64,000 bases of DNA from a virus: IMG/VR virus record IMGVR_UViG_3300026519_000009, positions 1-64,000 of that record, one strand, 5' to 3'. Below, in pieces: positions 1,797-63,204 of the stretch. The notes below the pieces were generated by a model, which was not told where the DNA came from, searched no databases, and was given only the letters and a program-made list of their open reading frames with translations. Numbering within the stretch: position 1 is the first letter of the stretch; each line of letters starts with the position of its first letter. The position numbers and the translations under genes are program-made.

Positions 1797-1859
1797 CCAT
1801 AGTATTTGCCGGAATGCCACTTCCAAATCAGCGAGCTGATTTGGAAGTGGTCGCTTCAC
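1797..1859 (+). mobile_element. Palindromic mini-element copy; supplies the TGA stop of the adjacent minus-strand gene
   Basis: CCACTTCCAAATCAGC-ga-GCTGATTTGGAAGTGG-TCGCTTCAC; left end degenerate. Confidence 0.8.
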
Positions 1860-2131
1860 TTTAATTCACGCCATATCATCATTTTCTTCGTGTTTTTATC
1901 CTTACGTACAAACACCTGTCCTGAATTTGAATATATATCATGGCGTTTTATTTGTCGAAGCACATTTGTTGACACGTTATGTACACGCGCAAATTCATTA
2001 AAATCAACAGCGATATGTGGGATTTTTTTAAAAGCTAATGCAATTTTATTCCCTTTCGGTCCACGTTTTTTAAGTTTCTTTTTTTGTTTTGTTGCTGTTT
2101 GTGGGGGCGAATGTGGTAATGTGTCTTTCAT
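1856..2131 (-). CDS. Basic hypothetical protein, possibly DNA-binding
   Basis: GGAGGA RBS before MKDTL; Lys/Arg-rich. Confidence 0.55.
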   Translation of the reverse strand: MKDTLPHSPPQTATKQKKKLKKRGPKGNKIALAFKKIPHIAVDFNEFARVHNVSTNVLRQIKRHDIYSNSGQVFVRKDKNTKKMMIWRELK

Positions 2132-2369
2132 TAATATTCCTCCAATTATAGTGTTCATTTCCGGTTTCCCGATAAGTCTTATCGCCAACGCGCTTGCTGC
2201 TGAATAAGCCGGTTGTTGTGTCCATTTGCGATGTGTACGCTGCATTTACAAGTTTACAAGCATTTTATGTGACGTTATTCTTACATAGACTTTCAAATAA
2301 GTCAAATCCAAATCATCAAAGCCGATCTTTGTGCGTTATAACAGTATGGTATGTGGTTGAATCCAATAT

Positions 2370-2398
2370 TTGACACAGCATCCTGTCGATGGTACAAT
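2370..2398 (+). promoter_or_regulatory. Sigma70-type promoter upstream of rpsU
   Basis: TTGACA-N17-TACAAT with extended -10 TG. Confidence 0.7.
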
Positions 2399-2434
2399 TG
2401 TATATTAACTATTAACATTATAAAGGGAATGTGT

Positions 2435-2653
2435 ATGGCTACCGTAAAACAAAAACATGTAAATGAAAGATTTGACAGCTTACTTCGGAGATTTAAAAAG
2501 GCAGTAGATAATGATAATATAATTAAGGAATATAGAAATCGTGAATTCTATTCAAAACCATCATTAAAACGAAAAGCCAAACGGGCGGCGGCGATTAAGC
2601 GTGCCGAAAAACAACATAATGAATCCGTCATGTTGAAAACCCGATTATACTGA
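2435..2653 (+). CDS. rpsU: Phage-encoded 30S ribosomal protein bS21
   Basis: NERFDSLLRRFKKAV...EYRNREFYSKPSLKRK...AAAIKR; ends in TRLY like gammaproteobacterial S21. Confidence 0.9.
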   Translation: MATVKQKHVNERFDSLLRRFKKAVDNDNIIKEYRNREFYSKPSLKRKAKRAAAIKRAEKQHNESVMLKTRLY

Positions 2654-2656
2654 TTC

Positions 2657-3038
2657 ATGTTCCACTGGACTTACACAGAAATCTTTGGTAAACTAACGCG
2701 GTATTGCGAAGATCAAGTTGTTATTGTTCGCAAATTACCGTCTAGTTACGCGAGCCAACAACGATGCACCAAAGGCGGCTGGGTACAAAAAACCAATAGA
2801 AATGGTAAAACATTTGAATGCCAGTCATGCGGTCACGCCGCAGATGCGTATATCAATGCCGCCATTAATATCGGAAGCGAATTGTCAACGTTGTCAAATC
2901 GCAAGTTACTAGACAACAATAATGGATTTTATTGGAATCTAGTAGATCAGGAGCAGTATATAGTCCCTGATTACCAAAAAACATTGAATAATATATTGTA
3001 ATGGTTTACAATATATGTATATTCAAAATGTAACTATC
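2657..3038 (+). pseudogene. tnpB: tnpB 3' remnant (second family) with downstream end region
   Basis: Degenerate zinc ribbon and RuvC-III: NRNGKTFECQSCGHAADAYINAAINI; 3' region repeated at 57889-57999. Confidence 0.7.
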
Positions 3039-3062
3039 TGGGTGTTGTTTAAGAGAATTTAT

Positions 3063-3723
3063 CCAAGTGGCCGGATAGACACCATATTAAATACACAATG
3101 ATTAAGTGAATTTAGTTCTTGACTTGACATTTAACTATGGTATCATAACTATATGAAAAGAGCAATCATTCCTGATGATAAAGCCATGAAGACTTTAATA
3201 ATCCGTGTCAAGGACAACAAGCGCAAGGTTTTAAAGCAAAAGGCGTTTGAAGTCAATCAGGTGTGGAATGATGCAAATCATAAATGGTCAACCAAGATAG
3301 TAAAAGAAAACGAATTAATAGCGATTGGTAATGTTAGTGCGTCTAAGTTAGCAAAAACCAAGATGGCTAAATCCGTATTAGACGCAGGTTGGTATCAACT
3401 AAAGAACATGCTCGATTATAAATCGAAAGCGATGCGATGCATGTTTGTTGAAGTCAACGAATCGTACACCACCCAAACTTGTTCGACGTGTCAAAAAATA
3501 ACTGACACGAGTCCGAAAGGTAGATCAGGCCTTGGAATAAGAGAATGGACGTGTTCCGGGTGTGGAACAAGGCATGATCGTGATATCAATGCAGCAACGA
3601 ACATTCTCCGCTTGGGAAGTCAAGCGCTGGTAGCAGGAGTCTGTGGAAACACAGAAGACACAATGGGTGACCATTGTGCGAATCCACCACCAAATCTTTG
3701 ATTTGGTGGTGGATTCGCTTCAA
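3063..3723 (+). mobile_element. Internally deleted IS200/IS605 (IS1341-like) element with truncated tnpB
   Basis: TTTAT|CCAAG left end; promoter TTGACT-N16-TATCAT; ORF 3153-3701; right hairpin followed by TTCAA. Confidence 0.85.
3153..3701 (+). pseudogene. tnpB: tnpB with in-frame internal deletion (RuvC-I missing)
   Basis: N-terminal KTLIIRVKD fused to AKSVLDAGW...VNESYTTQTCSTC...WTCSGCG..HDRDINAATNI. Confidence 0.85.
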
Positions 3724-3754
3724 AACAATCTATTACATAGGAGAATCTAAGAAA

Positions 3755-4630
3755 ATGAAAATATTAATGGTAGGCATTACCGCTATTTCACTACTATTGC
3801 TGGCGAATATAGCAGTTGGAAGTAGTACCTCCGGTTGGGGAACAAAACATGTGCATAACTCGAAATGTAATCACACAATTAACAAGAATAGAAACGTTAA
3901 TAAAAACATGAATGTTAACAAGAATAGAAACGTTAATAAAAACATGAATGTTAACAAGAATAGAAACGTTAATAAAAACATGAATGTTAACAAGAATAGA
4001 AACGTTAATAAAAACATGAATGTTAACAAGAATAGAAATATTAATCGAAGTAATAACAATCTGAGGACAACAAGCGTTGCCAAAATTAATGGTTCAGGTA
4101 ATAGTAAAAATTACAACAAAACTACCAGTTCGGCAAATGCAACGGGTGGTTCGGCAAATGCAACGGGTGGTTCCGCACAACAAAAACAAAGCCAATCACA
4201 ATCGTTGAATAATTCAGGAAATTCGTCGGCGACAGCGGTGGGTGGTGATGTTTTAGCCAACGGTGCAATTCAGATATCTGACAATTCTAGCACAGTATAT
4301 AAGGCAGCGCGGATTCCTGTAAATACGGCATGGGCAGCCCCATTGGTGGCAAGCGATGATACTTGCATGGGCAGCACTAGTGCTGGTGGACAAGGCATTA
4401 CTATTGGGTTAAGTTTTAGCACAACTTGGAGTGATTCCGACTGTGTTGTTCGTAAGGATGCACGTTTTTTGCACAATACACATCGTCCAGACATTGCGTT
4501 ATCATTAATGTGTTCTAAGAAATCCGTTAAGGAAGCGGTTAGGAGGGCAGGTAGCGACGCTGAAAAACGTAGTTGTGGTCTATTAGAACCGGCACCAACA
4601 GTAACCGAAGAATATGGCGAAAGGGGTTGA
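3755..4630 (+). CDS. Secreted low-complexity Asn-rich repeat protein
   Basis: GGAG RBS; signal peptide; (NKNRNVNKNMNV)n; Cys-containing C-terminal domain. Confidence 0.7.
   Translation: MKILMVGITAISLLLLANIAVGSSTSGWGTKHVHNSKCNHTINKNRNVNKNMNVNKNRNVNKNMNVNKNRNVNKNMNVNKNRNVNKNMNVNKNRNINRSNNNLRTTSVAKINGSGNSKNYNKTTSSANATGGSANATGGSAQQKQSQSQSLNNSGNSSATAVGGDVLANGAIQISDNSSTVYKAARIPVNTAWAAPLVASDDTCMGSTSAGGQGITIGLSFSTTWSDSDCVVRKDARFLHNTHRPDIALSLMCSKKSVKEAVRRAGSDAEKRSCGLLEPAPTVTEEYGERG
3881..4038 (+). repeat. 36-bp tandem repeat, about 4.4 copies
   Basis: AACAAGAATAGAAACGTTAATAAAAACATGAATGTT, perfect copies. Confidence 0.95.
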
Positions 4631-8401: not shown

Positions 8402-8829
8402 CTAAAATGCAGAAATACCACCGCCAAATTCAGCGAGCTGAATTTGGCGGTGGATTCGCATAATGATCACACATTATGCTGTCGGCAACTGTTGGCAACC
8501 TTCCGTGTTCCGTTGGTAGCCCATAGACACCTCCTACGATCGTTTCGCTTCACAAGTGGAGAATGTTCATCGCTGCATTGACAACGCGCTCATGTATTGT
8601 TCCACGCTTGATTGACAACAAACGCCTTTTGAATCAATACTTTGCGTTTGTTGTCATTGACACGAAACTTTAATGTCTTCATGACTTTATTGTCGGAATG
8701 AATGCACTTTTTCACATAAACGGTGTACCATAGTTAAATGTCAGATCAAGAACTAAATTCACTATGGTGCCTATCCAACCACTTCCAAATCAGCAAGATG
8801 AATTTGGAAGTGGTATTCCGGTAACTTGG
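8402..8829 (-). mobile_element. Decayed tnpB element with a left end on both sides, between divergent genes
   Basis: Reverse-complement similarity to 3063-3723; hairpins at about 8418-8453 and 8779-8813; both ends abut ATAAATA motifs. Confidence 0.85.
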
Positions 8830-12586: not shown

Positions 12587-15500
12587 GTGCCGAGTGATAA
12601 TAAAACAGATTATATGATAAAATTTATGGATTTACTGGAATTATTACCAGAGCCATATCAATCTGATGTTAATATAAGTGTAGTTAATAACCTTTTTAAT
12701 CGTTTTTTAACGAAAAAAGAGACGGTGCGCGTCTCTGGTTATATTGGTGTTGGTAATCAAAATGCTCTTACCCCTAGACGAATTAAAGAAAATGATATTC
12801 ATCGTCAAGCGTTTCAACTTCAACCAATATTATATGACAAAATTGGTACAATTGAACACATGGCATCGTGGAAGGATATTCAAAATGAAACGACACGACT
12901 TGGAATAAACATTGACGATTTTGCAACGTGGGGCGCAAGTGAAACCTTTAATTGGGTGCCACCAATTGATATCAATAAGATTATTAACTATCGTGACTAT
13001 TATTGGGTCGATACCGTAGGTAGTCAACCACAATATATTACCGTTCGTAGTCGCTGCGCAGTAGCGACAAGTCTGGCAAACTTTTGGGGGCAAATAATAA
13101 CACAATACGGTGAATTATTTCCAATAACTGAAATACGTGAGATTGACGACACCAGTGCATTACAAACATATTCTATTGTGTCGATTAATACAGGCACTGG
13201 TAATGTTGTTATTACAGGTGATGCCACAACCGATATTGTTAATGGTAATTTTTTTAACATATCATCAACATTAAACAACAATGGTACCTACCAAGTAAAT
13301 ATGGCACCGGTATATGATGGTGTTACAAACACTACAACATTAGACGTAAGTGGTTTAATTGCGGATGAAAATATTGGATTAGTAACACTTAGACGATATG
13401 ATAAGCTGGTGATTGGTCCAAATGACAATACACCTACCGGTGATTATAGTACGCTATTTGAAGAAGGGTTTGTTTTTTTTATGAGGCAACCAACAAACCC
13501 AGAACAAAATAATCAATTTGTAACGGTAATTAGTTCAACGTTTGACCCAAACAATGCAAACACAATAGTTAAGATCGGATTAACAACTACCGATAATACT
13601 GTGGCAGCTAGTAGTATGGTTTCATTGGTTGAACAAAATGCAATATATGTCGATGCCCGAAATTGTCAATGTGGCGTTGGGGTAGATGGCTGGGATGATG
13701 GTGTTTTATGGGACGATAACCCATCTAATCCAATATGGGGGGATGCGGAAGGTGCATTAGGGTCACCCATCCCTGATGGAATTTCGGATTATCAAAATTT
13801 AATTAATCGCATATCAAATGCCGGTCCACCTGCTTTGCCGGGAATTCAAAATGAATTATGGTTTGATACCATTGGTGATATATTATATCAATATGATACG
13901 GTAGGCGGTTGGAAGATCATTTGGAACTCTTTTAGTACATTACTATCCGATGTAACCGGACAAGTATTATGGGATTTATCGCAAAATTGCGACGAAGCCA
14001 TTCGTATACCAGCCATGGATCAATGGATTCTTGAAAATAAATGGGTTCATAAAAATGATATAACTAACTTTGCTTCGGTACGTAGAGCCACCCAACCTAT
14101 TATAGAATATGACTGGGACTTAGAGTTAAACGAATGGACATTTACCAAATATCGCTGGGGATACCGTAGTGAAACAAATGGTACCTTCATAGAAACAACA
14201 GAACTTCCACCTTTTATAGAATTAGAAGAAATAGTATGGTGGGAACTGGATACTACTGATATTACGAATAGTACTGTAATCCTTGACTCGCGTTATGGTG
14301 ATCAAAGTGCCTGTTTCGCAGCAAACACCCGATTTCATATTGGTAACACTATTATTAATGAAGTTGACTATGTTGAATATAAAAAACCGTCAATTGCCAG
14401 TATGTTCCCATATAGAACATATGTGAAATTTAAAACACCAATCGTAGGGTCAACCGGTGACTTTAGTATAGGAACCCCTAATAGTTTGTCATTAACACCA
14501 GTTGTAACAAAACAAGGTGATCTTTGGGGAGGATACGGTGTTCATTGGATATTTTTAGGCGCAAATGATACAGTACCTGTTCCACACCAAACGGATAATC
14601 CTGATGTTGCAATTCTGGATACTGCGTTGGTGTCTACTATTGGAAGTCCTCCTATATATGAAACACGCGAATCATTATATGCGCAAGAATTTCAATTATT
14701 AGCACCATCTACAACAATATTGGAATTAAGTAATATTGTTCCTACTAATGATACTAGATCATTACAAAGAAAGGCATTGTATAATTTCGATGATATTCGT
14801 GTTTATTTAAGCGATATCACAAATGGAAATATTGTTCGTCAATTCGGAACGTATGAAGAAATAGGAGAAGTTGTTGTCGATATTATCGGAATCGATGACG
14901 TATTAAACGAATTTATAATAGGTGAAGACTATTCAACATTATATACAGCAGGGGATACAATACGATTACAGGAAAATAATACGGTTGGTACACAAGACTA
15001 TACGGTTGCGGGCGGTGCGTCAAATCCTAATCGTATTCGCGTAACAACCGCGCTTGCCGGAATATCCATAACCGGACAAATAGTGAATATATCGAATCCT
15101 GTTACTACCGAATTATATCCAAATATCGATTTCGTAAATACACGAAATATTTCAATTTATGTTCGAGGGATACGCTTCTTAACCCCTGTGTTAGGCGGAC
15201 AAAATGTTACAATAGAAGTCGGTGAAGCATCAATAAATGAATTAGACCGTCATGCACTTAGAGTGCGCACTATTGAGGATGAAGCACAATATAATATTGT
15301 TGGTGACTTAGCTATTAGTACAATAAAATATAGAAAAGTTGAACAAGTAAAAACAAGTGACAATCAATATCCTTTATTTGATATTTTTACAGCAACGGGC
15401 GAAGCTGCAAATCGTGCCAATCCTATATTTGGATATAAAACGTCAAACACCGCTCCTATTAATCAAACAGGACTACGAATAGTTTTCGATGCAAGCACGC

Positions 15501-47937: not shown

Positions 47938-47945
47938 CGTCTGCA

Positions 47946-48917: not shown

Positions 48918-49008
48918 CTGTTGTTGTAAGTCATCAGCATTATTACTGATTTAAACAAACTATATCATAATTATTCAACAACTGTCAACCATTTTTTAAT
49001 GGTTGTGA

Positions 49009-49389: not shown

Positions 49390-49402
49390 TTTCGCCTCAA
49401 TA

Positions 49403-49756: not shown

Positions 49757-50190
49757 GATATCCCCTTTCGAATATTGCGTAAGTATTCAATACTAGCTTC
49801 GCATGTTGTTGGTGTCTTATTGGCAAGAATTTCATTTACCCTTTTATCGGTATTCACGCGGCTATCCCGTAGTGTATTTTTCAAACTTTTAATATTGTTT
49901 GCAAGGTTTTTTGATATCATTCGCCATTTATCAACTTCATTATTTCTATCAACAATACTGTCGGCAAGTGTATCATTCCCTTTTTTACAAATATCAATCG
50001 CATTATCCGCAGCAGCAAGTCTCTTCGTCAAGCTAGGTATGGTTTCAGCGCCAAAAAATATTCGGGCTTCAAACACATTTTGATATACTATTATAGCCAT
50101 CATACCACCAATGGCAATTGTTTTCCAGTTTGTTATGATAAACGGAACTATACTTTTAAAATTTAAAAGTTTTAATAAGAATAACGGCAT
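49744..50190 (-). CDS. Inner-membrane spanin (Rz-like)
   Basis: N-terminal TM, coiled coil, C-terminal PTTCEASIEYL. Confidence 0.7.
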   Translation of the reverse strand: MPLFLLKLLNFKSIVPFIITNWKTIAIGGMMAIIVYQNVFEARIFFGAETIPSLTKRLAAADNAIDICKKGNDTLADSIVDRNNEVDKWRMISKNLANNIKSLKNTLRDSRVNTDKRVNEILANKTPTTCEASIEYLRNIRKGISWEK

Positions 50191-50240
50191 AACAGATTCT
50201 CCACTTGATATAATTATATATCAAGTGGAGAATCTGTTAT
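50189..50240 (-). promoter_or_regulatory. Perfect 24-bp stem-loop masking the spanin RBS and start
   Basis: ATAACAGATTCTCCACTTGATATA-atta-TATATCAAGTGGAGAATCTGTTAT. Confidence 0.75.
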
Positions 50241-50249
50241 TTTTTGAAT

Positions 50250-50324
50250 TTACTGTTGGCAACCCTAAATTTCCGAAATGCCACTTCCAAATTTGGTTTG
50301 CTGAATTGGAAGTGGTCGCGTCAT
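50250..50324 (+). mobile_element. Mini-element copy with a 10-bp insert at its left junction; supplies a TGA stop
   Basis: CCACTTCCAA...TTGGAAGTGG-TCGCGTCAT. Confidence 0.75.
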
Positions 50325-50524
50325 TTTCCTAGTTTTTGGTGGATATTCATAAGGTCTGATGAATTTTTTCGTGTAGAATGATATGTTCTATCCAGCTTTA
50401 CACCAGTTTTTTGAAGTTGCTTCTGCAACTGACGCATTACTTTTTCTATTTTCCTAATTTGATCAGCCTGTTTTGATATCAGTTCCGATTGTAGTTTTAG
50501 TTGTTGTTCGATATTAATTTTCAC
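50321..50524 (-). CDS. Small coiled-coil protein
   Basis: 67-aa ORF. Confidence 0.55.
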   Translation of the reverse strand: MKINIEQQLKLQSELISKQADQIRKIEKVMRQLQKQLQKTGVKLDRTYHSTRKNSSDLMNIHQKLGK

Positions 50525-50873
50525 TATAAAGTTCCCAAAAGTTGATTATAACGTAGCTATTCCATAGGACAACTATCATGTATATTATCGTTACCGCTAA
50601 CATAGTCCAAAACACAAGGGGTCGCTGACACAGTGCCCAGCGGCGATACGCGATGCCACATACCCAAGATAATCCAATTAGTTTGACTACCAATATAACC
50701 CAAATAGTATTGGTTATGTCCATCAGATATACTAAAACTGGGTTTACCTCACGGCCATCCATTTTCTCTAAAATAATATATGTTGTGACGAAATCCAATA
50801 AGTTAAGAACAACAATGGCACCTATCATTGCAATGATGCCAATGCGGAGTGTATTAGCAGACAACAACATCAA
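50514..50873 (-). CDS. DUF5658-like membrane protein
   Basis: LNLLDFVTTY...GREVNPVL; 3 TM. Confidence 0.65.
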   Translation of the reverse strand: MMLLSANTLRIGIIAMIGAIVVLNLLDFVTTYIILEKMDGREVNPVLVYLMDITNTIWVILVVKLIGLSWVCGIAYRRWALCQRPLVFWTMLAVTIIYMIVVLWNSYVIINFWELYSEN

Positions 50874-51337
50874 TGACCGGTGGGCATTAAAATATGATTT
50901 GTTAATACAATTGCAGTATCAATATCCGATACTACAAATGGACATGCTTCAAGCAACATTGGGTGTTCATGTATATTTCCATGCGGTTCCATAATCAATA
51001 CGATTGGAATATTTGCTTGTTTGGCCCACGCAATTTCCATTACAGTACCAATACTAACAGTAGTGGCGTTCAGTAAATTTACTAGAAGTAAGTCAGAACG
51101 ATGAACATCAAAATTGTCACGTGTATATATACCACGCTGGGTAGATAATGGCCAATCATTATTGTCATAAGAACCAACTATTTTGTCAAGCGTACCTAAG
51201 TATTCCTTACCACGTAATGGGGACACGCCGCTGATATGCGAATCTAAATTTTCAATAGCATACTGTCGCCAGTCAATAGATTCGTTGAACCCGAGTCCTG
51301 AAATGGGCCCGGCCAAGTATACAAAAAACGATTTCAT
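50870..51337 (-). CDS. Nucleoside 2-deoxyribosyltransferase-like protein
   Basis: VYLAGP, DVHRSD, SIGTVMEIAWA. Confidence 0.85.
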   Translation of the reverse strand: MKSFFVYLAGPISGLGFNESIDWRQYAIENLDSHISGVSPLRGKEYLGTLDKIVGSYDNNDWPLSTQRGIYTRDNFDVHRSDLLLVNLLNATTVSIGTVMEIAWAKQANIPIVLIMEPHGNIHEHPMLLEACPFVVSDIDTAIVLTNHILMPTGH

Positions 51338-51592
51338 TTTTGCCTCCAGTAATGATATTATATTAAAGCGTTATCCATCAATATCAGGAAGTTCAGCATT
51401 CTGTTTCACCAATTCGTCAAACACAATAGAAATCCGATTAGATAATGTAGTTTCCAAGGCGGATAATGACGTAAGTTCTGATAGTCGAACGGTTGCTTCA
51501 ATTAAGCTATCCATGATATATTCTCTCTAATATTATTGAAACATGACAATATCATGCGATAACGAATAAATCAAGCATTTTATCCAATTTGA

Positions 51593-51766
51593 CTAAATTT
51601 CGGATGGCTTTCCAAATATTCGTTCAACTGCATGTAAGAACTCCTTTTCGGGGTCTAATGCCCGTGCGAGCATCTCTTCTTGTTCGGGTGTTAATGGTTG
51701 GGTTTCGGTAAATCCCATGTCGGCTAAAACGGTGATAATCGCTGAATCTTGGTTTTCTGTCTTCAT
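51593..51766 (-). CDS. Small acidic protein (57 aa, not in ORF track)
   Basis: MKTENQDSAII...ERIFGKPSEI; GGATAAATA 5 nt upstream. Confidence 0.45.
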   Translation of the reverse strand: MKTENQDSAIITVLADMGFTETQPLTPEQEEMLARALDPEKEFLHAVERIFGKPSEI

Positions 51767-51778
51767 GTGTATATTTAT

Positions 51779-51842
51779 CCAAGTTGTCGGAATACCACCA
51801 AATTAGCAAGCTGAATTTTGAAGTGGTATTCTGGCAACTTGG
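51779..51842. mobile_element. Mini-element with two left ends
   Basis: TTTAT|CCAAGTTGTCGGAATACCAC...GTGGTATTCTGGCAACTTGG|ATAAA. Confidence 0.85.
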
Positions 51843-51844
51843 AT

Positions 51845-51882
51845 AAAAAAAGCAGTGATATACCGAAAAATATCACTGCTTT
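51845..51882 (-). terminator. Intrinsic terminator
   Basis: AAAAAAGCAGTGATAT...ATATCACTGCTTT. Confidence 0.7.
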
Positions 51883-51906
51883 GGTTTAAACAACCACCGG
51901 TTGTCG

Positions 51907-52173
51907 CTAGTCGGCGGAGGGAGAATCTTCTGCGTCAGCAGAAGATTCTCCCTCCGCACTAAGCTCTGCACGTACTTTATTGATAATTTGTTGCGAAAGT
52001 GTTTCTTTTGCCGCAATATATCGAGTCAATTCATCCCGTACCACCACTTCCTGCCGTTGCCAATCATTATACATTTCGACCAATCCTTGAATTTCTTCAC
52101 TCAGACTATCAACCGCATATGGCTTTTCATCAATTGTAAGTACCTTAATATCCACTACTTTTTGCATCTTCAA
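51907..52173 (-). CDS. Small acidic hypothetical protein
   Basis: GGAG RBS; terminator downstream. Confidence 0.6.
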   Translation of the reverse strand: MKMQKVVDIKVLTIDEKPYAVDSLSEEIQGLVEMYNDWQRQEVVVRDELTRYIAAKETLSQQIINKVRAELSAEGESSADAEDSPSAD

Positions 52174-52254
52174 TCTCCTAATATTATAATTATATATTCA
52201 ACGCTTTATTTTACCACTGTATTGCTACAAATATCAATCTTTTTTTTTCATTTA

Positions 52255-53574
52255 TTACACATTCGGTAACGTGTTAAACATATGGTCGGCATCCGACAAA
52301 TCAACACCAGGCGGTGCATCGGATGGTTTTTTCTTCTTAAAAATAAGTTGATCGGAGGCGGCTGTATCATCATCCACTATCCTTAAATATTTATTATCCC
52401 ATTTTAAATGAATATGATCACCAACACCATCGCTATTTCGTGTTTTTTGTAAAATAAATATAATTTTTTCCATTGCACGCATCTCATCCGTCATTATTAT
52501 TGAGAAATAAGTATCAGCGACCTGTATTTTACTAAGACCACCAGCAATTTGACTATGATTATGTGATGGTGCTTCAATTGCACTACGATTAAGTTGGGAA
52601 GCGGTTGCAATAAACATATCGTAATCTATACCAATTTGTCGTAACTGTTCGGAACATAATTTATCTTTTTGAAACACATTATCAGCGGATATTGCTTCAT
52701 TTGCCCCCATATTATCAAGATAATCAAGAACGATCATATCCGGTATTCGTTTGTTTCTTAACTCAAATTCTTTTAAATATGCACGAATATCATTGGCGCT
52801 AGTTTCGGTTGGCATCTGTACGATATCTAACGCCCCGATGTTTTTACCGGCCTTTGTTACCGTTTTGGTTATTTCATCTACATGTTCTTTCCAAACTTTC
52901 CTAGAAATACCGGTGTACATTGTGTCAAATCTACTGCCTATTACATCTTCTGATAATTCAAGTGATATGTATAAAACGTCAAGTCCTCTATTTACAAAAT
53001 TTAATGCTAAATTGGCCAAAGTAATAGACTTACCGCCACCGGAATTCGCGGAAACTAATAATAATTCTTTTCGTGAAATACCACCAAATAATGCATCATC
53101 CAGTTTAGACCATCCGGTCGGTGATGTCTGCGTGCCTATTAAATTTCGTTGTAGTCGTTCTTCTACGCTTGAAAAATATGATAATCCAAGATTTTTTGAC
53201 AGTGATATTTGTGACGCGGCTAACATTACGGCAGCTGCTTCTGCATGTTTCGCATCGTTAGTAATTAGTTCAACGGCAATAATTACTGCTTCTTCCATCG
53301 CTCGCTTTTGGCAAAACTCTTCTATTTCATCTGCACAATATGAAACTTGATCCGTTGTTATTTCATGCATTCGCAACAACATGCCAGTTTCCGCTTCAAT
53401 TTGTTTTGTATTAGGTGTAGTGGAATACTCATTAAAGTATTTAACTATAAACATAATGACCCTTTGATATTCAGGATCAAAGTAAGTTGCTTTGATTATC
53501 CCTTGACACATAGCATATGTGTCCGGTGATGAAATCAGCAATTCTATTAAGAATTTTTGTTTAGTATTATCCAT
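52255..53574 (-). CDS. Replicative DnaB-like helicase (T4 gp41-type)
   Basis: SANSGGGKS Walker A, ISLELSE, VLDYLD, TASQLNR, KTRN. Confidence 0.92.
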   Translation of the reverse strand: MDNTKQKFLIELLISSPDTYAMCQGIIKATYFDPEYQRVIMFIVKYFNEYSTTPNTKQIEAETGMLLRMHEITTDQVSYCADEIEEFCQKRAMEEAVIIAVELITNDAKHAEAAAVMLAASQISLSKNLGLSYFSSVEERLQRNLIGTQTSPTGWSKLDDALFGGISRKELLLVSANSGGGKSITLANLALNFVNRGLDVLYISLELSEDVIGSRFDTMYTGISRKVWKEHVDEITKTVTKAGKNIGALDIVQMPTETSANDIRAYLKEFELRNKRIPDMIVLDYLDNMGANEAISADNVFQKDKLCSEQLRQIGIDYDMFIATASQLNRSAIEAPSHNHSQIAGGLSKIQVADTYFSIIMTDEMRAMEKIIFILQKTRNSDGVGDHIHLKWDNKYLRIVDDDTAASDQLIFKKKKPSDAPPGVDLSDADHMFNTLPNV

Positions 53575-53591
53575 TTTTTATTATTTTTTAT

Positions 53592-53650
53592 CCAAGTTGC
53601 TGGAATACCACTTCCAAATCGGCGATCTGATTTGAAACCGACCACTTCAA
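53592..53650 (+). mobile_element. Palindromic mini-element copy
   Basis: TTTAT|CCAAGTTGCTGGAATACCACTTCCAAATC...CACTTCAA. Confidence 0.8.
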
Positions 53651-53653
53651 TTT

Positions 53654-54661
53654 CTAAATATTTCGTATAGCGGGATATATAGTTTTTATAGCTGCCTCAT
53701 CGATGAAAAATTCACCATTATCGTAAACCAGTGCAAATTGATTCATTGTTGGGGTTATATCAGTAACATCTACATATATACCGGTATCCTTATCTACCGT
53801 AGCAAAGGGTGGATTTGACATAAGCAACAACACCTCATTTTTCTCTATACTTCTGGTATTCGGCGGACTACCCGAACATTCGGTTATGGTATCATATGTA
53901 AACGTAGAACCATTACCAACAATATCATCTTGTATTGATTGATATATCCCTTGATAGCTCCGCACCGTATATATTTTACCCTTAATGACCACACTATCAA
54001 AATCACTCCATGGTGATACCGAATTAAGCAAGGATTCGCTTACATTTGAATACAGGTGCTGTTCCGTATTTCCCGTTGCGGTAGTAAAGGATACCATTAT
54101 TCCGACATTTGCGCAAGTGCCTATGGTAGGGACTCGCGTGGCGATAGTGATTTCGCCACCAATGGAAATTTGTCGGCGCGACCGTATGGAGGCTGATTCT
54201 ATAGTAGTGGAAGATAATATATCGGGGGGGGACTGTCTAGCCACAAGCTGTGCAACCCCAGACCATTGACGATCAAATACCAACATAATATTATTTGAAT
54301 CGACTATTATGACATCTGTCGGTGATATTTCAACCATATTATTAATATCCGTTTCTGTTGGTATATTAACAAATACCGAAATTGCGGGCGTGGTACCAAG
54401 ATTATGTGGAATAGTCCATGTGGAGCGTGCAATAACTTGTGTATGATCATATAAAACACGACGGGGAAGCCACTCGTCCAGTCCAAATACGGGGGTTGAT
54501 ACACCAGCTTGGGTAAAGTCGGACATTAAATCAATTTGATACAATGAACCACGACAACCATGCGTAATAGTACAACGATTTATATTTTCAATACCATCGA
54601 TGATACGAACGTATTCCTTTTCCCGTTTACACACATCGCATCTATATAAAACAACTGCCAT
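53654..54661 (-). CDS. Probable virion protein
   Basis: N-terminal Cys motif (CDVC...CTITHGC); WTIPHNLG module; GSPP. Confidence 0.6.
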   Translation of the reverse strand: MAVVLYRCDVCKREKEYVRIIDGIENINRCTITHGCRGSLYQIDLMSDFTQAGVSTPVFGLDEWLPRRVLYDHTQVIARSTWTIPHNLGTTPAISVFVNIPTETDINNMVEISPTDVIIVDSNNIMLVFDRQWSGVAQLVARQSPPDILSSTTIESASIRSRRQISIGGEITIATRVPTIGTCANVGIMVSFTTATGNTEQHLYSNVSESLLNSVSPWSDFDSVVIKGKIYTVRSYQGIYQSIQDDIVGNGSTFTYDTITECSGSPPNTRSIEKNEVLLLMSNPPFATVDKDTGIYVDVTDITPTMNQFALVYDNGEFFIDEAAIKTIYPAIRNI

Positions 54662-54672
54662 ATTTCCCCCAA

Positions 54673-54975
54673 TTACGCCAATACAATATCGGACACTTGC
54701 TGTAAATAAGCATCAATCATTGGCTGTGGAACTGTTGTTACTTCTGACATAATTGCGGTCTTTAACATTTTTACCGTAGTTTCCGTAGTAAACTCTGGAT
54801 TATTTGCACTTACCATAAATGGTAACATGCCCAATGATACAGAACCATCTGGCGACTGCTGCATAACCAATACCCTAGCCCTTTCAAGCATATAGTAAGT
54901 ACTATTATCTTCTACGAGAGTTGCAATTACTTCTTCACCGCTGATTGTTTTAAGTGCCAATACTGTTGTTGTCAT
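54673..54975 (-). CDS. Small phage protein, Sm-like fold candidate
   Basis: LKTISGEEVIATL...YLQQVSDI pattern common in T4-like phages. Confidence 0.55.
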   Translation of the reverse strand: MTTTVLALKTISGEEVIATLVEDNSTYYMLERARVLVMQQSPDGSVSLGMLPFMVSANNPEFTTETTVKMLKTAIMSEVTTVPQPMIDAYLQQVSDIVLA

Positions 54976-55016
54976 CCTTATCTCCTATTTATTATTATAA
55001 ACATATAATATCAATT

Positions 55017-55583
55017 CTAACTATTGGTTGTCAAGTGCGCATAGTTACTAATCGTGGTGACACGGAGCGCATAGTAATATGGTATCCCATATAATATTAT
55101 TTCAGCACCGCTGGATATTCCTTCGGATAGCTGTTCGGTTGAATAATTAAACCGCAATAAATCTTCAAATATCATCGTTCCGCTTGTTTCACCAAGCTTA
55201 TTGAATATTGATTCAAATATTGGTTCGTAACAGTTGGTTGAATCGTTAACCGCCTTGCTGTACATATATCGAAACCCATTGGGTGGAAACACATAAAACA
55301 ACTCATTTTCATTTTCATAAATATCTTCCACCCCACCAATGGCAAATACTGCTCGTTCTCTCAGGTTATACAGTTGTTCCTTAAATACTGAATTAAAAAC
55401 CTTACCGAATTTCGTCGTATTATTGTGCTTACGGACTTTGATTTTTTGAAAGTCATCGTGTGTATTGGGTAAGTACTTGAACAATGGCATACCATTTGCT
55501 TCCAATAAAAACTGGGAACAATTGGTTTTGATTCGACGAATGTTGCTAATTTCGTTTATTTGTAATAATGGTTGTACGCGCAT
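55017..55583 (-). CDS. Hypothetical protein (possible internal head protein)
   Basis: LQINE N-terminus; GGATAAATA 6 nt upstream. Confidence 0.55.
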   Translation of the reverse strand: MRVQPLLQINEISNIRRIKTNCSQFLLEANGMPLFKYLPNTHDDFQKIKVRKHNNTTKFGKVFNSVFKEQLYNLRERAVFAIGGVEDIYENENELFYVFPPNGFRYMYSKAVNDSTNCYEPIFESIFNKLGETSGTMIFEDLLRFNYSTEQLSEGISSGAEIILYGIPYYYALRVTTISNYAHLTTNS

Positions 55584-55596
55584 AAAACCTATTTAT

Positions 55597-55663
55597 CCAA
55601 GTTGCAGCAATACCACTTCCGATTTCAGCTTGCCGATTTGGAAATGGTATTGCTACAATTTGG
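55597..55663. mobile_element. Mini-element with two left ends
   Basis: TTTAT|CCAAGTTGCAGCAATACCA...TGGTATTGCTACAATTTGG. Confidence 0.8.
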
Positions 55664-55704
55664 GTAACTAACAATAGTCAATCAAACACTAATCCAGACA
55701 ACGA

Positions 55705-56166
55705 TCACTTCCAACGCAACTCACCACCAATATTTTTGGGCATCCCATCTAAAGATTTAAGATGATTATTCATACACAAGAACGTTCCTCCCACTGAGGT
55801 CGGCGCACCGTCTAATGTTATTAATTCATTATCATAGCAAAAAAAACTACCATTAACCTCATATGGTGAATATTCTAAGCTGGATAATAAGTTAAATGAA
55901 CAATTAAAACCACCTTCTACTTCGTGCGGGCTACCTTTTAATGATGTCAATTTGTTACCTGAGCAGTTAAAATCACCATACACCGTTCGAAATTGCACTG
56001 GGATTTCGGTCAAATAACGATGACAAATGTTTACGTTACCATTTACGATAACACTACCGTTATCGCAAATAATATAGTTTTTTATTTTCATATTTTCAAG
56101 CCAGCGCATAATATCGCACACTGGCTTGAAATCCGTTCCGGAGGTATCAGGCATGTTCATCATCAT
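55705..56166 (-). CDS. LRR-like solenoid repeat protein
   Basis: 22-aa repeats GDFNCSGNKLTSLKGSPHEV. Confidence 0.8.
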   Translation of the reverse strand: MMMNMPDTSGTDFKPVCDIMRWLENMKIKNYIICDNGSVIVNGNVNICHRYLTEIPVQFRTVYGDFNCSGNKLTSLKGSPHEVEGGFNCSFNLLSSLEYSPYEVNGSFFCYDNELITLDGAPTSVGGTFLCMNNHLKSLDGMPKNIGGELRWK

Positions 56167-57148
56167 GCTCTTTCATTCCCCCAAAGTGTCTGGATTCTGT
56201 CACAGATATATTATGCTTTTTGAAATATTTTCGAATATCAGCATGGTGTTTGGTAACAATGGTACTACCATGTTTACCCTTTACCTGCGTTGCCTTTCCG
56301 TTAACCAGCTCAATTGTTGCGATTGGGACCATTAGTTTATTCCGAGCACTGTAAATTTTTGCCTTGCCCTTTTCAATATCAGAACCATACGAAGCAACGC
56401 AATGTTTCATTAATGTACCTTCGACCTTAGCACTCTCCCGTGTCAGTAATTTTACAACTGTTATTGTTTCAAAATCATCATCTTCAACCGTAAAGTCTTT
56501 GCCTTCAACCAAGTTATCTATCATTTCTTGTGCCAGCGCAGCGTCAACTATTTCGGATTGTTGCACCGTGTATTCGTGCCATGCTATTGACCGCTTTAGC
56601 GCTTCCGGGAAATGTAGTTTTGATATATCACGAACTTGAAAGGCTAATGGACAAATAACACTTTCCTCATATCCCGCCTGTGCGTTTGCTAATAAAAAAT
56701 CATGCACGTTACTGATGACATTTGTTAGTTTTAATATTCTGAACATTCGTCCTGCTGAAAACACAACAACATCATCAATCGCTTCTTGTGCAAATTCAGG
56801 AAATAATGCCAAAGCGGTTTGCATTGAAATGTTGTTGCTTTTTGTTGAAACTAATGTGGTCAGATATTCCTTTAATGGGACAAAAAACATTTCTTGAAAT
56901 TTTTCAGGGTTCATCATGTCATTCGTGATATCAATTGCACCACGTCTGACCCAATTATAAAAATTGTGTTTAAACCAATATCGTACATCATCAGTTGTTC
57001 GAGAATTACAAATTTTATTGTCAATAAAGCGTTCTATAATATGTTGACACGTATTGATATGGTCGATTTCAATGCCATCGTTATTTGCTATTGTGATTTT
57101 TACATTACCAGAATTGACAATATTCGGACATTTTTTCATAGCTTTCAT
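56147..57148 (-). CDS. PcfJ-domain protein
   Basis: EGTLMKHCVASY...IYSAR...ATIEL...QVKGK. Confidence 0.8.
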   Translation of the reverse strand: MKAMKKCPNIVNSGNVKITIANNDGIEIDHINTCQHIIERFIDNKICNSRTTDDVRYWFKHNFYNWVRRGAIDITNDMMNPEKFQEMFFVPLKEYLTTLVSTKSNNISMQTALALFPEFAQEAIDDVVVFSAGRMFRILKLTNVISNVHDFLLANAQAGYEESVICPLAFQVRDISKLHFPEALKRSIAWHEYTVQQSEIVDAALAQEMIDNLVEGKDFTVEDDDFETITVVKLLTRESAKVEGTLMKHCVASYGSDIEKGKAKIYSARNKLMVPIATIELVNGKATQVKGKHGSTIVTKHHADIRKYFKKHNISVTESRHFGGMKEHDDEHA

Positions 57149-57177
57149 AGATACATTCCATAAGTAGTTGAATTAAA

Positions 57178-57519
57178 TTGAAGTGACCACCATCAAATCA
57201 GCGAGCTGTGTTTGGTGGTGGATTCGCACAACGGTCGCCCATTGTGTTTTCTGCATTTCCACAGACCCCTGCTAGTAGCGCTTGGTTTCCCAAGCTGAGA
57301 ATGTTCGTTGCTACATTTACATTGCAATCATGCATTGTTTCACACCCGGAGCATGTACATTCTCTTATTCCAAGACCTGAACTACCTTACTGATAATAAC
57401 ATAGTTAAATGTCAAGTCAAGAATTAAATTCACTTAATCATTGTGTGTTTAATATGTTGCCTGTCCAACCACCATCAAATCAGCACGATGATTTGATGGT
57501 GGTTGGACAGGCAACTTGG
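57178..57519 (-). mobile_element. Deleted IS200/IS605 element retaining promoter region, tnpB 3' end and both hairpins
   Basis: Reverse-complement similarity to 3063-3723; TTGAA at 57178; AACTTGG|ATAAA at 57519. Confidence 0.88.
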
Positions 57520-57880
57520 ATAAATATTCAATAACAGCCTCTTCGTCTATTGTTAGTGATCCACTTGCATTGGCGCGGCGCAACGTAGTTTCAAAGGTCA
57601 TTATCATTTCTTTTGAGTTTATATATTCTAATATGATTTCACACGCGGCGCGTGTGAAATCATATTGTGAATTGTCCTCATCATGTTTGTAGTCAATTGC
57701 CAACGCCGCCATAAACATGATATTTTGTACCACTGGCACCGTGGTTGGCATTAAAGTGAACCATCCAGGATCATTTTTAATAAAATTGGTGTATAAAATT
57801 TTATCATCATCCGTTAATGGCACGCAGCTTGACATTTGTTTAACAAATCGTTCTTCATATGTTTTTTGCAATGCAGTCAT
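57449..57880 (-). CDS. Hypothetical protein with element-derived C-terminal extension
   Basis: Reads through the left end (EYL|SKLP...); excision gives EYLF*. Confidence 0.6.
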   Translation of the reverse strand: MTALQKTYEERFVKQMSSCVPLTDDDKILYTNFIKNDPGWFTLMPTTVPVVQNIMFMAALAIDYKHDEDNSQYDFTRAACEIILEYINSKEMIMTFETTLRRANASGSLTIDEEAVIEYLSKLPVQPPSNHRADLMVVGQATY

Positions 57881-59358: not shown

Positions 59359-59370
59359 ATTGATATTTAT

Positions 59371-60088
59371 CCAAGTTGCCGAAATACCACTTCCAAATTC
59401 ACGTGGTCGGTGGTATCTTTCGGTTCAAGTACTTGTTGACAAACAAGTATCAACTGGCACCGGACATATAGGAATTGACTTGGGGTTAAAGACCATTGCT
59501 ACGTGTTCAAATGGCGAAATATTAGAACGTAAGGAATATTATCGTAAATCCGAAAGCAAGTTGGGCATTGCCCAACTTGCAAAAAAGAAACGCCAAGTAA
59601 AAACAATTCATGCGAAAATCAAGAACCAACGGATGGACACAAATCATAAATGGTCAACCAAGATAGTAAAAGAAAAACGAATTAATAGCGATTGGTAATG
59701 TTAGTGCGTCTAAATTAGCAAAGACTAAGATGGCTAAATCCGTATTAGACGCAGGTTGGTATCAACTAAAGAACATGCTCGATTATAAATCGAAAGCGAT
59801 GCGATGCATGTTTGTTGAAGTCAACGAATCGTACACCACCCAGACCTGTTCGTCGTGTCAGGAAATAACTGAAACGAGTCCGAAAGGTAGGACAGGTCTT
59901 GGAATAAGGGAATGGACGTGTTCCGGGTGTGGCACATTGCATGATCGTCATATCAATGCAGCAACGAACATTCTCCGCTTGGGAAGTCAAGCGCTCGATG
60001 GAGGAGTCTGTGGAAACACAGAAGACACAATGGGTGACCATTATGCGAATCCACTTCCAAATCAAAGATTTGGAAGTGGTCGCTTCAA
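59371..60088 (+). mobile_element. tnpB: IS200/IS605 element remnant with the largest tnpB fragment (5' deleted, frameshifted)
   Basis: TTTAT|CCAAGTTGCC; IGIDLGLKT RuvC-I; extra A near 59678; zinc ribbon; right hairpin + TTCAA. Confidence 0.9.
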
Positions 60089-60112
60089 CAGTAATAATAA
60101 AGGAAACGGCTA

Positions 60113-60325
60113 ATGCCTACATATCAATATAAATGTTCAAATAAAAAGTGTGACATTCATAATGTTATTATAGAAGTAAAGCAAAAAATGACTGAAGAAC
60201 CATTACAAATATGCCCCGACTGTTCTGAACCTACCTTAACAAAAAGGATATCAGGCGGTGGTGGATTCCGCATAGGTGGCCAAGGCGTTCATAAACCAAC
60301 CGCACACTGGGGTGATCTAAGCTAA
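60113..60325 (+). CDS. FmdB-family zinc-ribbon protein
   Basis: MPTYQYKC....C...CPDC...KRISGGGGF. Confidence 0.85.
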   Translation: MPTYQYKCSNKKCDIHNVIIEVKQKMTEEPLQICPDCSEPTLTKRISGGGGFRIGGQGVHKPTAHWGDLS

Positions 60326-60591
60326 TGTCAACCACCACGAAAGAGATTGAAACAATAATTAATAAAAAAATATCATTACTTTCGTGGAATTATTTATTGA
60401 ACTTCTTTGAAGAATTCAAGTCAGAGCTTTCAATCAATGAAATTGAAATACTAAATGCACATTCAGAAAAATGCAGGCATTTCTTAAATACTAAATATGA
60501 AAAAACGTATGGTTGGAAACATATTTCAAAAAAAGATATGAGAGTTGATATATTATATTATTTAAAAGAAAGAAAGAAAAAACGATTGTAA
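60325..60591 (+). CDS. Hypothetical protein
   Basis: TAATG coupling to upstream gene. Confidence 0.55.
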   Translation: MSTTTKEIETIINKKISLLSWNYLLNFFEEFKSELSINEIEILNAHSEKCRHFLNTKYEKTYGWKHISKKDMRVDILYYLKERKKKRL

Positions 60592-61153
60592 AAGTTTAAC
60601 ATTCGTGTAATATCCATAATACAGAAGTGATGATCAAGCCCCCAATTTGGGCACTATTGTTGCACATCACCAACAATTCGATGTACGTTGCCCAATTTAT
60701 CGAAAGACGTTGAGGTTAGTCCATTGTTAGGTAGATTTTTATATTTACCAGAAGGTAGAAAACAAACATGCTGTAGTGTTCCAGTTTTCAAACGCTATGG
60801 TGGTAGTTCCCCACTAGGCCCGCGAAACCCCCCGTGACCGGCCTGGATAGATATATATCTATCCGAACGGAGGGGGGCCAGCTCTCATGGTTTTAAATGG
60901 TTAAAAAAAATAATTTAATAATGAATGTTTATTAGTTCTTTCTGCCTTGCGAGGCTTTATCCGCAAGGCAGAAGAATAATTGATATTACATTTTCGCGCC
61001 TTGGTGCGAAGATTATAGATAATCCATTATTACGTTATTATATTATTATGGAAATTGAAAATGTAGGCAATAATTGCAAAAAATGTGGTTTTGTTGTTGT
61101 CATGTCCCATTCATAACATTGGCACCAGACAAGTGCTTTCACGCAAGCGCTTC

Positions 61154-61168
61154 TTGAACGCAACTTGG
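61154..61168 (-). repeat. Minimal element scar (both ends, hairpin lost)
   Basis: TTGAA-CG-CAACTTGG|ATAAA. Confidence 0.5.
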
Positions 61169-61260
61169 ATAAAAAATACAAGTCGTCAATAGTGACGAAT
61201 AAATATATTCTTAAAAAATAATCCATTGATGATTTATAAAAAACATGATACAATCATAGG

Positions 61261-62859
61261 ATGAATAATAAATCAAAAATATTTGAATCATGGCCCACGC
61301 CAGAATTCACACCTCGTACAAATCAAATAATTGCATTGGAATGGATTGAAAAACAAACCGCAAAATATTTGATTTTGGAAGCACCGGTTGGTAGTGGAAA
61401 ATCACATACAGCACTTACATTTGCAACCTCTATATCAACACATCTAAAACACTCATTTGTATTAACACCACAGATAATTTTACAACAGCAATATGAAGTT
61501 GACTTTAAAAAAAATGGTAGTGCATTTTTAGCATCATTGCGTGGTAAATCAAATTATAAGTGTATTAATAAAAAAACATCATGTAATGTTGGTTCTTTAG
61601 TCAAACCAAAATGTGCTGTCTGCCCCTATATTAAAGCAAAACAACGGGCATTATACTCCAAAAATACGGTTCTTAATTACAAGTTGGCACTAACTACCTT
61701 CACGTATACAGATACGTTTGCAAAACGAAAGCTATTAATAATGGACGAAGCACATACCCTTGAGCGACATTTAGTTGATTTTGATTCCGTTGATATCAAA
61801 TCTTTTATATGCGAGAAATACAATATTAAATTTAAAGTTAATACTAATATTAAATCAGCAAAAGAATGGGTAACAAAAGAATATTTACCTAACATACAAG
61901 ACGCATTAAATACACTTGAAGAAGATAGTGAATATTTATATGAAAAAACAGGAGCAGAAATAACAAAAAAGGAATTAAAATTATTATCAGAAATTGATGA
62001 ATTAAGCGCACATGTGAATGATGTTTTGGAATTGTCAATACGAAATGTTAAGTATTTAGAAAAACACTTCGTACTAGTACACGATAAAACGATGATTCAA
62101 TTTAAACGTATTACAGGCGCGTATTCATTTAAAAAAATATTTGAACCACAAGCTGAACGTTTTTTATTCATGTCCTCAACCATATTAAATAAAAACCAAT
62201 TCTGTGCAGACTTAGGTATTGATGAAAAAGATACCGCGTTTTTATCACTTGAAAGTGACTTCCCTGTTGAAAACAGGCCAATATATTATATGCCCATTTT
62301 AAAAATGAATGCTGCTTGGAACAAACCAGAACAAGCAAATGGTAGAAAACAAATGATTACCAGAATATGCGAACTGCTTGATATTCATAAAACCGAGTCG
62401 GGAATAATCCACACAGCAAATTATCAAATAGCAATATGGTTAGTACAGGAACTTTCGAAGTTAAAGTCACACGACATTTATCATCATAATCCAAAAACCA
62501 AGCATAATCGAAATACCACAATTGATATGTTTATAGAGTCAACCGTACCATCTATTCTTATAAGCCCATCATGTACCGAAGGACTTGACCTAAAAGATGA
62601 TTTGTCACGGTTCGCAATGATTGTTAAGACACCGTTTGGATACTTAGGTGACCAGTGGATAAAGAAACGGTTAGATATGTCGGCTGAATGGTACAGGCGC
62701 AGAGCTATGACCGATATCATACAAGCTGGTGGACGAATTGTGAGAAGTTCAAATGATAGTGGCACAGTATATATTCTGGACGGTAGCTTTGGATACCTAT
62801 ATTCGCAGTCATCTTCCATGATACCAAAATGGTGGAAAGATTCATTAGTGTTTATGTAG
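61261..62859 (+). CDS. DinG/XPD-like SF2 helicase
   Basis: APVGSGKS, Cys cluster, DEAH, MSST, EGLDL, QAGGRIVRS. Confidence 0.9.
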   Translation: MNNKSKIFESWPTPEFTPRTNQIIALEWIEKQTAKYLILEAPVGSGKSHTALTFATSISTHLKHSFVLTPQIILQQQYEVDFKKNGSAFLASLRGKSNYKCINKKTSCNVGSLVKPKCAVCPYIKAKQRALYSKNTVLNYKLALTTFTYTDTFAKRKLLIMDEAHTLERHLVDFDSVDIKSFICEKYNIKFKVNTNIKSAKEWVTKEYLPNIQDALNTLEEDSEYLYEKTGAEITKKELKLLSEIDELSAHVNDVLELSIRNVKYLEKHFVLVHDKTMIQFKRITGAYSFKKIFEPQAERFLFMSSTILNKNQFCADLGIDEKDTAFLSLESDFPVENRPIYYMPILKMNAAWNKPEQANGRKQMITRICELLDIHKTESGIIHTANYQIAIWLVQELSKLKSHDIYHHNPKTKHNRNTTIDMFIESTVPSILISPSCTEGLDLKDDLSRFAMIVKTPFGYLGDQWIKKRLDMSAEWYRRRAMTDIIQAGGRIVRSSNDSGTVYILDGSFGYLYSQSSSMIPKWWKDSLVFM

Positions 62860-62861
62860 TG

Positions 62862-62883
62862 TTGAATAATTCAGGCAACTTGG
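62862..62883 (-). repeat. Minimal element scar
   Basis: TTGAA-TAATTCA-GGCAACTTGG|ATAAA. Confidence 0.55.
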
Positions 62884-62898
62884 ATAAAGGAAAAAAAA

Positions 62899-63204
62899 AT
62901 GCGAAGCATATTAAAATTAATGTTACAGATTGTCGCGTATGCAGTAATAGTGATGTTAACAGTATATTGGATATCGGCAGAACAACTAAACTACATTCTT
63001 ATTGAAATACCAACATTAATATTTGATACGTTGGTTAAGTTAATGCCGACTAATGGCCACGAATCAACAACAGTTGACGTTGCGTTAATGGGGATATACA
63101 CATTCCTTGCACTAACCTTACCCGTTCTTTGGTGGTTATTTGTATTTTTTACACCATTTATGCTATTACGTAATGTTTCCAACAAATATATTAATGGTTG
63201 TTGA
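62899..63204 (+). CDS. Membrane protein; stop codon supplied by element
   Basis: Two hydrophobic segments; TGA lies in TTGAAGCG. Confidence 0.6.
   Translation: MRSILKLMLQIVAYAVIVMLTVYWISAEQLNYILIEIPTLIFDTLVKLMPTNGHESTTVDVALMGIYTFLALTLPVLWWLFVFFTPFMLLRNVSNKYINGC

Follow-up and report, generated by a model that had tools for sequence, protein, structure and literature searches.

The window analysed here, the first 64 kb of the 76,606-bp IMG/VR record IMGVR_UViG_3300026519_000009, carries a repeated element whose two boundaries both read as stop codons on the opposite strand: the complement of its target, TTAT, is A-TAA and that of its right end, TCAA, is T-TGA, in equal register. When a copy lands on the TAA of an antisense gene, that TAA would be moved about 60 nt downstream and a TGA would take the same codon slot, with the last sense codon changing only in its third base, where T replaces A (Lys becoming Asn, for instance). 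A sequence-only reading of the window had named five genes as ending on such a TGA, and in all five the stop is indeed the complement of the right-end TCA. We consider it probable that the spread of non-autonomous IS200/IS605 elements, this stop-codon swap and purifying selection together explain the pattern.

Stop codons supplied by the element's right end

The five stops lie at 1856-1858, 39354-39356, 47407-47409, 50321-50323 and 63202-63204 and close open frames of 129, 211, 143, 67 and 101 codons, respectively. Four of the five frames are real genes with homologs; for the open reading frame (ORF) at 50321-50524, which has a weak coding score (3.2), no homolog was found in the phage collection. 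A sixth element-derived stop, absent from the earlier reading, is the TGA at 63261-63263, which ends a 543-aa gene on the minus strand (63261-64892). The elements, among them mini elements and longer insertion sequence (IS) copies, and the genes that they adjoin are as follows.

47346-47349, plus strand: TTAT target at a left end, whose complement ATAA would have carried the in-register TAA
47350-47410, plus strand: mini element of 61 nt, with a 16-nt left arm, a weakened hairpin (47366-47401) and the right end TCGCTTCAA
47407-47838, minus strand: NUDIX hydrolase gene (PF00293), its TGA being the complement of the right-end TCA
38912-39357, plus strand: IS copy of 446 nt that retains part of a decayed tnpB; its left hairpin spans 38928-38963, and the TTAT before it lies at 38908-38911
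39354-39929, minus strand: conserved phage gene ending ...GIVNY and the element TGA
1801-1859, plus strand: degenerate mini element, with a hairpin at 1817-1850 (z = -5.55), the right end TCGCTTCAC and the left flank CCAT (1797-1800)
1856-2245, minus strand: gene ending ...MIWRELK and the element TGA, with 165 homologs
50265-50324, plus strand: degenerate mini element of a subfamily with a CTAAAT left arm, with the right end TCGCGTCAT and the left flank AACC (50261-50264)
50321-50524, minus strand: putative gene, a 67-aa ORF stopping on the element TGA
63201-63264, no strand assigned: double-right-end-like element of 64 nt, TTGAAGCGCC ... hairpin ... AACTTCAA, lacking a left end
62899-63204, plus strand: small membrane-protein-like gene ending ...YINGC and TGA
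63261-64000, minus strand (63261-64892 in the contig): 3' part, within the window, of the 543-aa gene, ending AAT TGA

Deleting 47350-47410 in silico turns GTT AAT TGA into GTT AAA TAA, exactly as had been proposed for this junction. The 446-nt copy finishes with ...GTCGCTTCAA at 39348-39357, and the element at 63201-63264 makes up the whole spacer between two convergent genes, giving a TGA to both and folding, as single-stranded DNA, into one long hairpin (-18.6 kcal/mol, z = -5.92). The TCA is a feature of the element and not a product of selection for stops, since it is kept in all 12 right ends that do not serve as stops.

Orthologs that run well past the present gene ends would indicate that the insertions had truncated these genes, and none of the four cited genes for which this can be tested shows them. 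The gene ending at 39354 allows the closest reconstruction. Among its aligned orthologs (45-70% identity), 12 of 13 end ...[IM]V[RKMI], one residue shorter than the ...GIVNY of the window, and in silico excision of 38912-39357 joins AAC TA to A TAA ATA to give AAC TAA TAA, so that the protein would end ...GIVN* at exactly the ortholog length. Because excision restores that length, we infer that the insertion split the stop of the gene as TA/A, which now reads as TAT (Tyr) followed by the element TGA; most likely, then, the original stop stood one codon earlier and the gene gained a single Tyr.

The remaining gene ends agree in length with their orthologs as well. The C-termini of NUDIX orthologs differ by up to about three residues, and the window protein lies inside that range. 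Orthologs of the protein encoded at 62899-63204 end ...YI[SN]C, with a C-terminal Cys being common, and have 100 aa vs the 101 aa found here. The family of the gene at 1856-2245 ends MIWR[ED] followed by a tail whose length varies (2-7 aa or more), the window protein ending WRELK*. For the sixth gene we turned to paralogs in G001 (50.5 kb), which together with G002 (25 kb) is one of the two sister IMG/VR contigs that were compared: in three of four paralogs the end aligns with that of the window gene, the last codons being AAA TAA, GCT TAA and, followed by a remnant of a right end, ATT TGA. The pairing of AAA TAA in a paralog with AAT TGA in the gene at 63261 is the footprint predicted for an insertion.

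The repeat family and its host

About 30 copies of one repeat unit were found in the contig by repeat and hairpin searches. Its top strand consists of TTAT / CCAAGTTGCCGGAATA / an 11-16-bp hairpin / TCGCTTCAA, and most copies are 58-65 nt long, non-coding and with a single hairpin. A left arm of 16 nt separates the target and the foot of the hairpin, the right end matches TCGCTTCAA exactly or closely, and TCAA finishes 9 nt past the hairpin foot. A left-end search of the contig, G001 and G002 found TTAT directly 5' of 36 left ends, a few others being preceded by TTAC, TTAA or ATAC instead. The flanks outside TTAT and outside TCAA are variable, and the flank 3' of TCAA is not TTAT.

These properties are those by which IS200/IS605 elements are recognised: insertion at a fixed tetranucleotide with no target duplication, a conserved right-end tetranucleotide near the hairpin foot, and subterminal hairpins, here with stems of 11-16 bp, in the absence of terminal inverted repeats. 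Single-stranded folds gave z scores of -4.8 to -5.9 in four copies and of -2.6, -1.3 and -0.05 in three. Longer copies with the same ends enclose tnpB sequence, whose 3' end reaches into the right end; two of them are listed here.

3063-3723, plus strand: IS copy with the same ends, containing a 182-aa TnpB C-terminal fragment at 3153-3701 (phrog_506, PF07282)
59371-60088, plus strand: IS copy, again with these ends, whose TnpB is split into OrfB_IS605 (PF01385) at 59360-59698 and TNB (PF07282) at 59730-60113

All TnpB genes within same-ended copies are fragmentary or split, and decayed tnpB remnants lie in 38912-39357, 57178-57519 and about 8418-8829. A Y1 HUH transposase, TnpA, is encoded in G001 (49915-50394, minus strand; 159 aa, PF01797, E = 1.5e-41, with an HIH motif), where it overlaps a mismatch-free left end starting at 49919. 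The ORF of this TnpA reads the bottom strand across the entire left-end hairpin, so that the left end codes for its last 26 or so residues; the ORF stops in the flanking target, on the TAA within the complement ATAA.

Judged by sequence, the repeats are non-autonomous IS200/IS605-family elements, partly single-hairpin and PATE-like and partly bearing TnpB fragments. The element model of the sequence-only reading (an IS200/IS605-type unit inserted 3' of TTAT and ending in TCAA) is thereby sound, given the TnpB copies and the TnpA of G001. The unusual feature is that one hairpin serves both ends; a form with two hairpins is present only at 43722-43865. Forms with two left ends occur at 51779-51842, 55597-55663 and 23633-23698, and these, like the double-right-end form, suggest flank exchange via the palindromic hairpin.

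Several further traces of such elements were seen. A second TnpB fragment (30404-31303, minus strand), between nrdB and nrdA, corresponds to the N-terminal two thirds of phrog_506 and looks like another IS200/IS605-type lineage; the hairpin near it (31318-31348) is of a different type, with TATTTAT just outside. A left-end-only remnant at 39945-40000 follows TTAT at 39941-39944. A strain about 95% identical is present in a second study, and one of its contigs is longer by about 550 nt between 39965 and 39984, so the element content of this site differs between strains. Beyond the window, at contig positions 67845-67875, a hairpin-less remnant consists of TTGAATCGACCACCACC fused to AACTTGGAT, and the gene at 67411-67875 (plus strand) reads across it. 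A search of the window with Rfam at the gathering threshold gave zero matches, hence no catalogued omega-RNA family. The exact right-end pattern was also sought across IMG/VR and occurred in 52 stretches; the hairpin accompanies it only in G001 and G002, and the others are chance matches.

The contig, with a completeness rating of 24%, represents part of a T4-like jumbo-phage genome, as its helicase, baseplate and nrd genes indicate. The public sequencing run that matches it best, and may be its source, carries the label hydrothermal vent metagenome. The window contains genes for the baseplate wedge and hub, nrdA and nrdB, thymidylate kinase, a DnaB-like helicase and an ORF of 3681 aa, and the best matches of the helicase, at about 40% identity, are jumbo phages of 300-490 kb. 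An N4-like phage had been considered on account of the 3681-aa ORF (12587-23632, plus strand, immediately 3' of the baseplate wedge gene) and was dropped in view of the same helicase, baseplate and nrd genes. No close relative was found by blastn and tblastn against GenBank phages or when IMG/VR was scanned for the NUDIX and helicase proteins; relatives of the DnaB-like helicase have at most 52% identity, and among the matches listed in a metagenome scan none exceeds 47%.

Other features of the window include a phage-encoded homolog of ribosomal protein S21 (2351-2653, plus strand; PF01165, E = 3.9e-15), followed by another small ORF, which encodes a TnpB TNB domain (2657-3001, plus strand). 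Tandem repeats lie at 3843-4058 (18/36-nt units, within the ORF 3674-4630) and at 44026-44219 (21-nt units, within the gene 43890-44558), and a duplication of 174 nt (42511-42858) lies within a tail-fibre-like gene (41721-43685). Two perfect hairpins have no relation to the element: one of 24 bp at 50189-50240, which is flanked on both sides by T/A runs in the manner of a two-way terminator, and one of 20 bp at 51914-51957.

Site occupancy and competing explanations

A count of in-register against out-of-register insertions, which had been proposed as a check, gives nine in-register cases across the three contigs, with three to four genes that read out of register into an antisense element and one that reads through a left end in sense orientation. 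Thirteen right ends in the contig face a co-directional upstream gene, and in six of the thirteen the stop coincides precisely with element bases 2-4; for the remaining seven, the distance from stop to element is 3, 8, 10, 14, 23, 24 and 138 nt. Of the 1495 TTAT sites in the contig, 1270 are intragenic, 215 are intergenic and 10 are free in-register A/TAA stops. Only three of the intragenic sites, each at the extreme 3' end of a gene, are occupied, compared with about 20-25 of the intergenic ones, and two in-register stop sites with certainty, and up to six, are occupied vs the 10 that are free. Roughly, occupancy of stop sites is at least as high as the intergenic density and about 100 times that of internal gene sites.

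We can offer a proposal for how the distribution arose. TnpA-type, single-strand 'peel-and-paste' insertion 3' of TTAT would spread copies in a T4-like jumbo-phage lineage, in-register stop codons would be about as permissive as intergenic DNA, and purifying selection would leave copies mainly on stop codons and in short spacers beside the motif ATAAATA.

The sequence-only reading had gone further and described the swap as a built-in stop rescue. The swap itself is real and backed by orthologs; that it evolved as a rescue is doubtful, IS608 having the same property. Selection of the in-register TAA/TGA pair for living on stops in packed genomes would accord with the excess of in-register cases (9 vs 3-4 and 1), with a T-Y-A pattern also in IS608, and with a stop class at least as densely occupied as intergenic sites. 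However, base pairing with guide tetranucleotides dictates both TCAA and the target (PMC3201880), so that the pattern may reflect a mechanistic constraint, purifying selection alone predicts the same enrichment, and a single lineage was sampled; we therefore regard such selection as unlikely. We are equally doubtful that the T-Y-A-N of both cleavage sites is a selected, family-wide trait that permits residence on stop codons. If it were, it would help to explain some 30 copies in 76 kb of a compact jumbo phage, and, with the target lying inside ATAAATA, one insertion would keep both the upstream stop and the downstream promoter core. We know of no IS200/IS605 members that lack the in-register stop property, and hence of no comparison group. 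Since the TTAC and TCAA of IS608 share the complement property, the swap follows from the end chemistry of the family, and the pattern is best read as one for which this chemistry, or mechanistic constraint, and purifying selection are enough.

The motif ATAAATA lies 15-40 nt 5' of start codons both with and without an element (element-free examples are at 1489 on the minus strand, 26063 on the plus strand, 54986 on the minus strand and 65608 on the plus strand). Because it occurs without the element, it is a promoter-like motif in its own right, with the target lying inside it, and strand-specific insertion at its complement accounts for the near-uniform antisense orientation of copies to the flanking genes. 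Its designation as a 'late' promoter is by analogy with the TATAAATA of T4. The rebuilt junction at 39354, TAATAAATA, has a stop overlapping the promoter-like motif; among present-day element-free junctions, the contig has none with a stop overlapping ATAAATA and G001 has one.

Instead of a transposon, the unit might be a conserved regulatory cassette, like the promoter/stem-loop cassettes (PeSLs) documented in T4-type phages (PMC2839356, PMC4122927), with genes simply ending where the cassette begins: the left arm and ATAAATA always point towards the gene that follows, at 15-40 nt from its start codon, and the hairpin stems vary with compensatory changes. This is very improbable, however, as the same ends bracket TnpB fragments and adjoin a TnpA, conservation ends exactly at TTAT and TCAA, ATAAATA is found without the element, excision restores ortholog length, and neither a sigma-70 promoter (-35/-10) within the 61 nt nor a T-run after the hairpin is present.

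Not every insertion at a gene end was silent, as two cases illustrate.

46855-46912, plus strand: mini element, an out-of-register insertion
57178-57519, minus strand: IS copy in sense orientation to the gene that it adjoins

The gene at 46881-47330 (minus strand) was hit one base out of register and reads 10 codons into 46855-46912, its TGA lying in the loop; in silico excision implies that about five residues were replaced by 10. The gene at 57449-57880 (minus strand) reads 23 codons across a left end, and excision gives ...EYLF*, one residue having been replaced by 23. Searches with these two proteins gave no hits. Two genes in G002 likewise read 10 codons into an element, alongside two in-register cases there, and G001 has one in-register case. 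That insertions in general truncated or re-tailed genes, the TGA being the first stop met, holds for these two genes and could draw on the eight codons that excision with today's flanks adds to the frame at 1856, but is most unlikely as an account of the pattern, with four of the five cited proteins ending within 0-3 residues of their orthologs.

Several observations weigh against our preferred account of spread, stop swap and purifying selection. No empty-site allele was found in two runs aligned on 37501-57500 or in a relative, L005, the ortholog length at 39354 being an indirect sign in favour of one. The strain of about 95% identity carries the 47350-47410 copy as well, on a contig that bridges 46810-50227 with one gap. 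L005, which is 88% identical over 70429-74920, has a different 33-nt spacer opposite the element at 71718-71773, and this spacer, at the sole comparable site, is a differently decayed remnant and not a clean empty site. The 47350-47410 copy is itself decayed, with a stem of only 8 bp (z = -0.05). TTAT is still present only at the 39354 and 47407 sites; the other three cited sites lack it, and neither the TAA nor the history of insertion can be reconstructed there. Orthologs were compared as proteins and may themselves carry the element, the gene calls were crude ones made within the analysis, and no TnpA was found in the 76.6-kb contig, which represents about 24% of the genome. The copies at stop sites are old and fixed. 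In the aligned runs no joint leaves out exactly one element at its own locus, and the listed skips of 386-396 nt are other mini copies, which align with the hairpin pair of the IS copy.

If spread, swap and selection did act as we propose, they would provide a rule for the cost-free persistence of IS200/IS605 elements and their TnpB/omega-RNA cargo, namely residence, on the opposite strand, at TAA stops preceded by A. Such a rule would explain part of the gene-end distribution in this phage, which has hardly any DNA to spare. For annotation there is a warning: in this lineage a TGA followed by AGCGACC is element-derived, and a few C-terminal tails are transposon-encoded.

Relation to known systems

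The closest parallel is IS608 and the wider IS200/IS605 family. In IS608, TTAC lies 19 nt 5' and TCAA 10 nt 3' of the hairpins, and the cleavage sites of the family are set by pairing with guide tetranucleotides (PMC3201880). The elements described here share strand-specific insertion 3' of an AT-rich target of 4-5 nt with no duplication, subterminal hairpins, a TCAA about 10 nt past the hairpin foot and a TnpB within the element. In our own reading of the IS608 ends, the complements of TTAC and TCAA, GTAA and TTGA, form the same in-register stop pair. The differences are that the target here is TTAT or TTTAT, as in ISGst2, for which a TTTAT target motif is known (PMC10055086), and that the copies, mostly of 58-65 nt, use one hairpin for both ends and reside in a jumbo-phage replicon. 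In the literature searched we found no paper that remarks on the consequence of IS200/IS605 ends for stop codons.

Palindrome-associated transposable elements (PATEs), the MITE-like derivatives of IS200/IS605 (PMC10055086), resemble most copies in being non-coding, in keeping both a left and a right end and in being presumably mobilised by TnpA in trans (PMC10055086, PMC3119063). Described PATEs have separate left and right hairpins, whereas here a single hairpin is flanked by arms of 16 nt and 9 nt; most copies thus do not keep both hairpins, the exception being 43722-43865. PeSLs, too, are repeated stem-loops beside promoters at T4-like gene junctions (PMC2839356, PMC4122927), but they are early-promoter/terminator recombination sites that lack a transposase, a target site and defined ends. 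The units described here have no -35/-10 pair and no T-run, and have TTAT/TCAA ends and transposase links.

Two further systems bring small DNA units together with reading frames. Rickettsia palindromic elements are small palindromes that coexist with reading frames, inserted in frame within genes and not replacing stops, and many integron cassettes have their stop codon inside the inverse core site of attC. Both are recombination systems unrelated to the phage element.

IStrons, which combine an IS200/IS605 element with a group I intron, belong to the same family and are likewise rendered harmless on landing in genes (PMC4227781). They differ in how this is achieved: the IStron depends on RNA splicing, whereas the elements described here rely on a stop within the DNA end itself, and this works only at stop codons and in one orientation and frame. 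If this property is general in the family, stop-codon swapping would be a third route to harmless insertion, besides intergenic targeting and IStron splicing.

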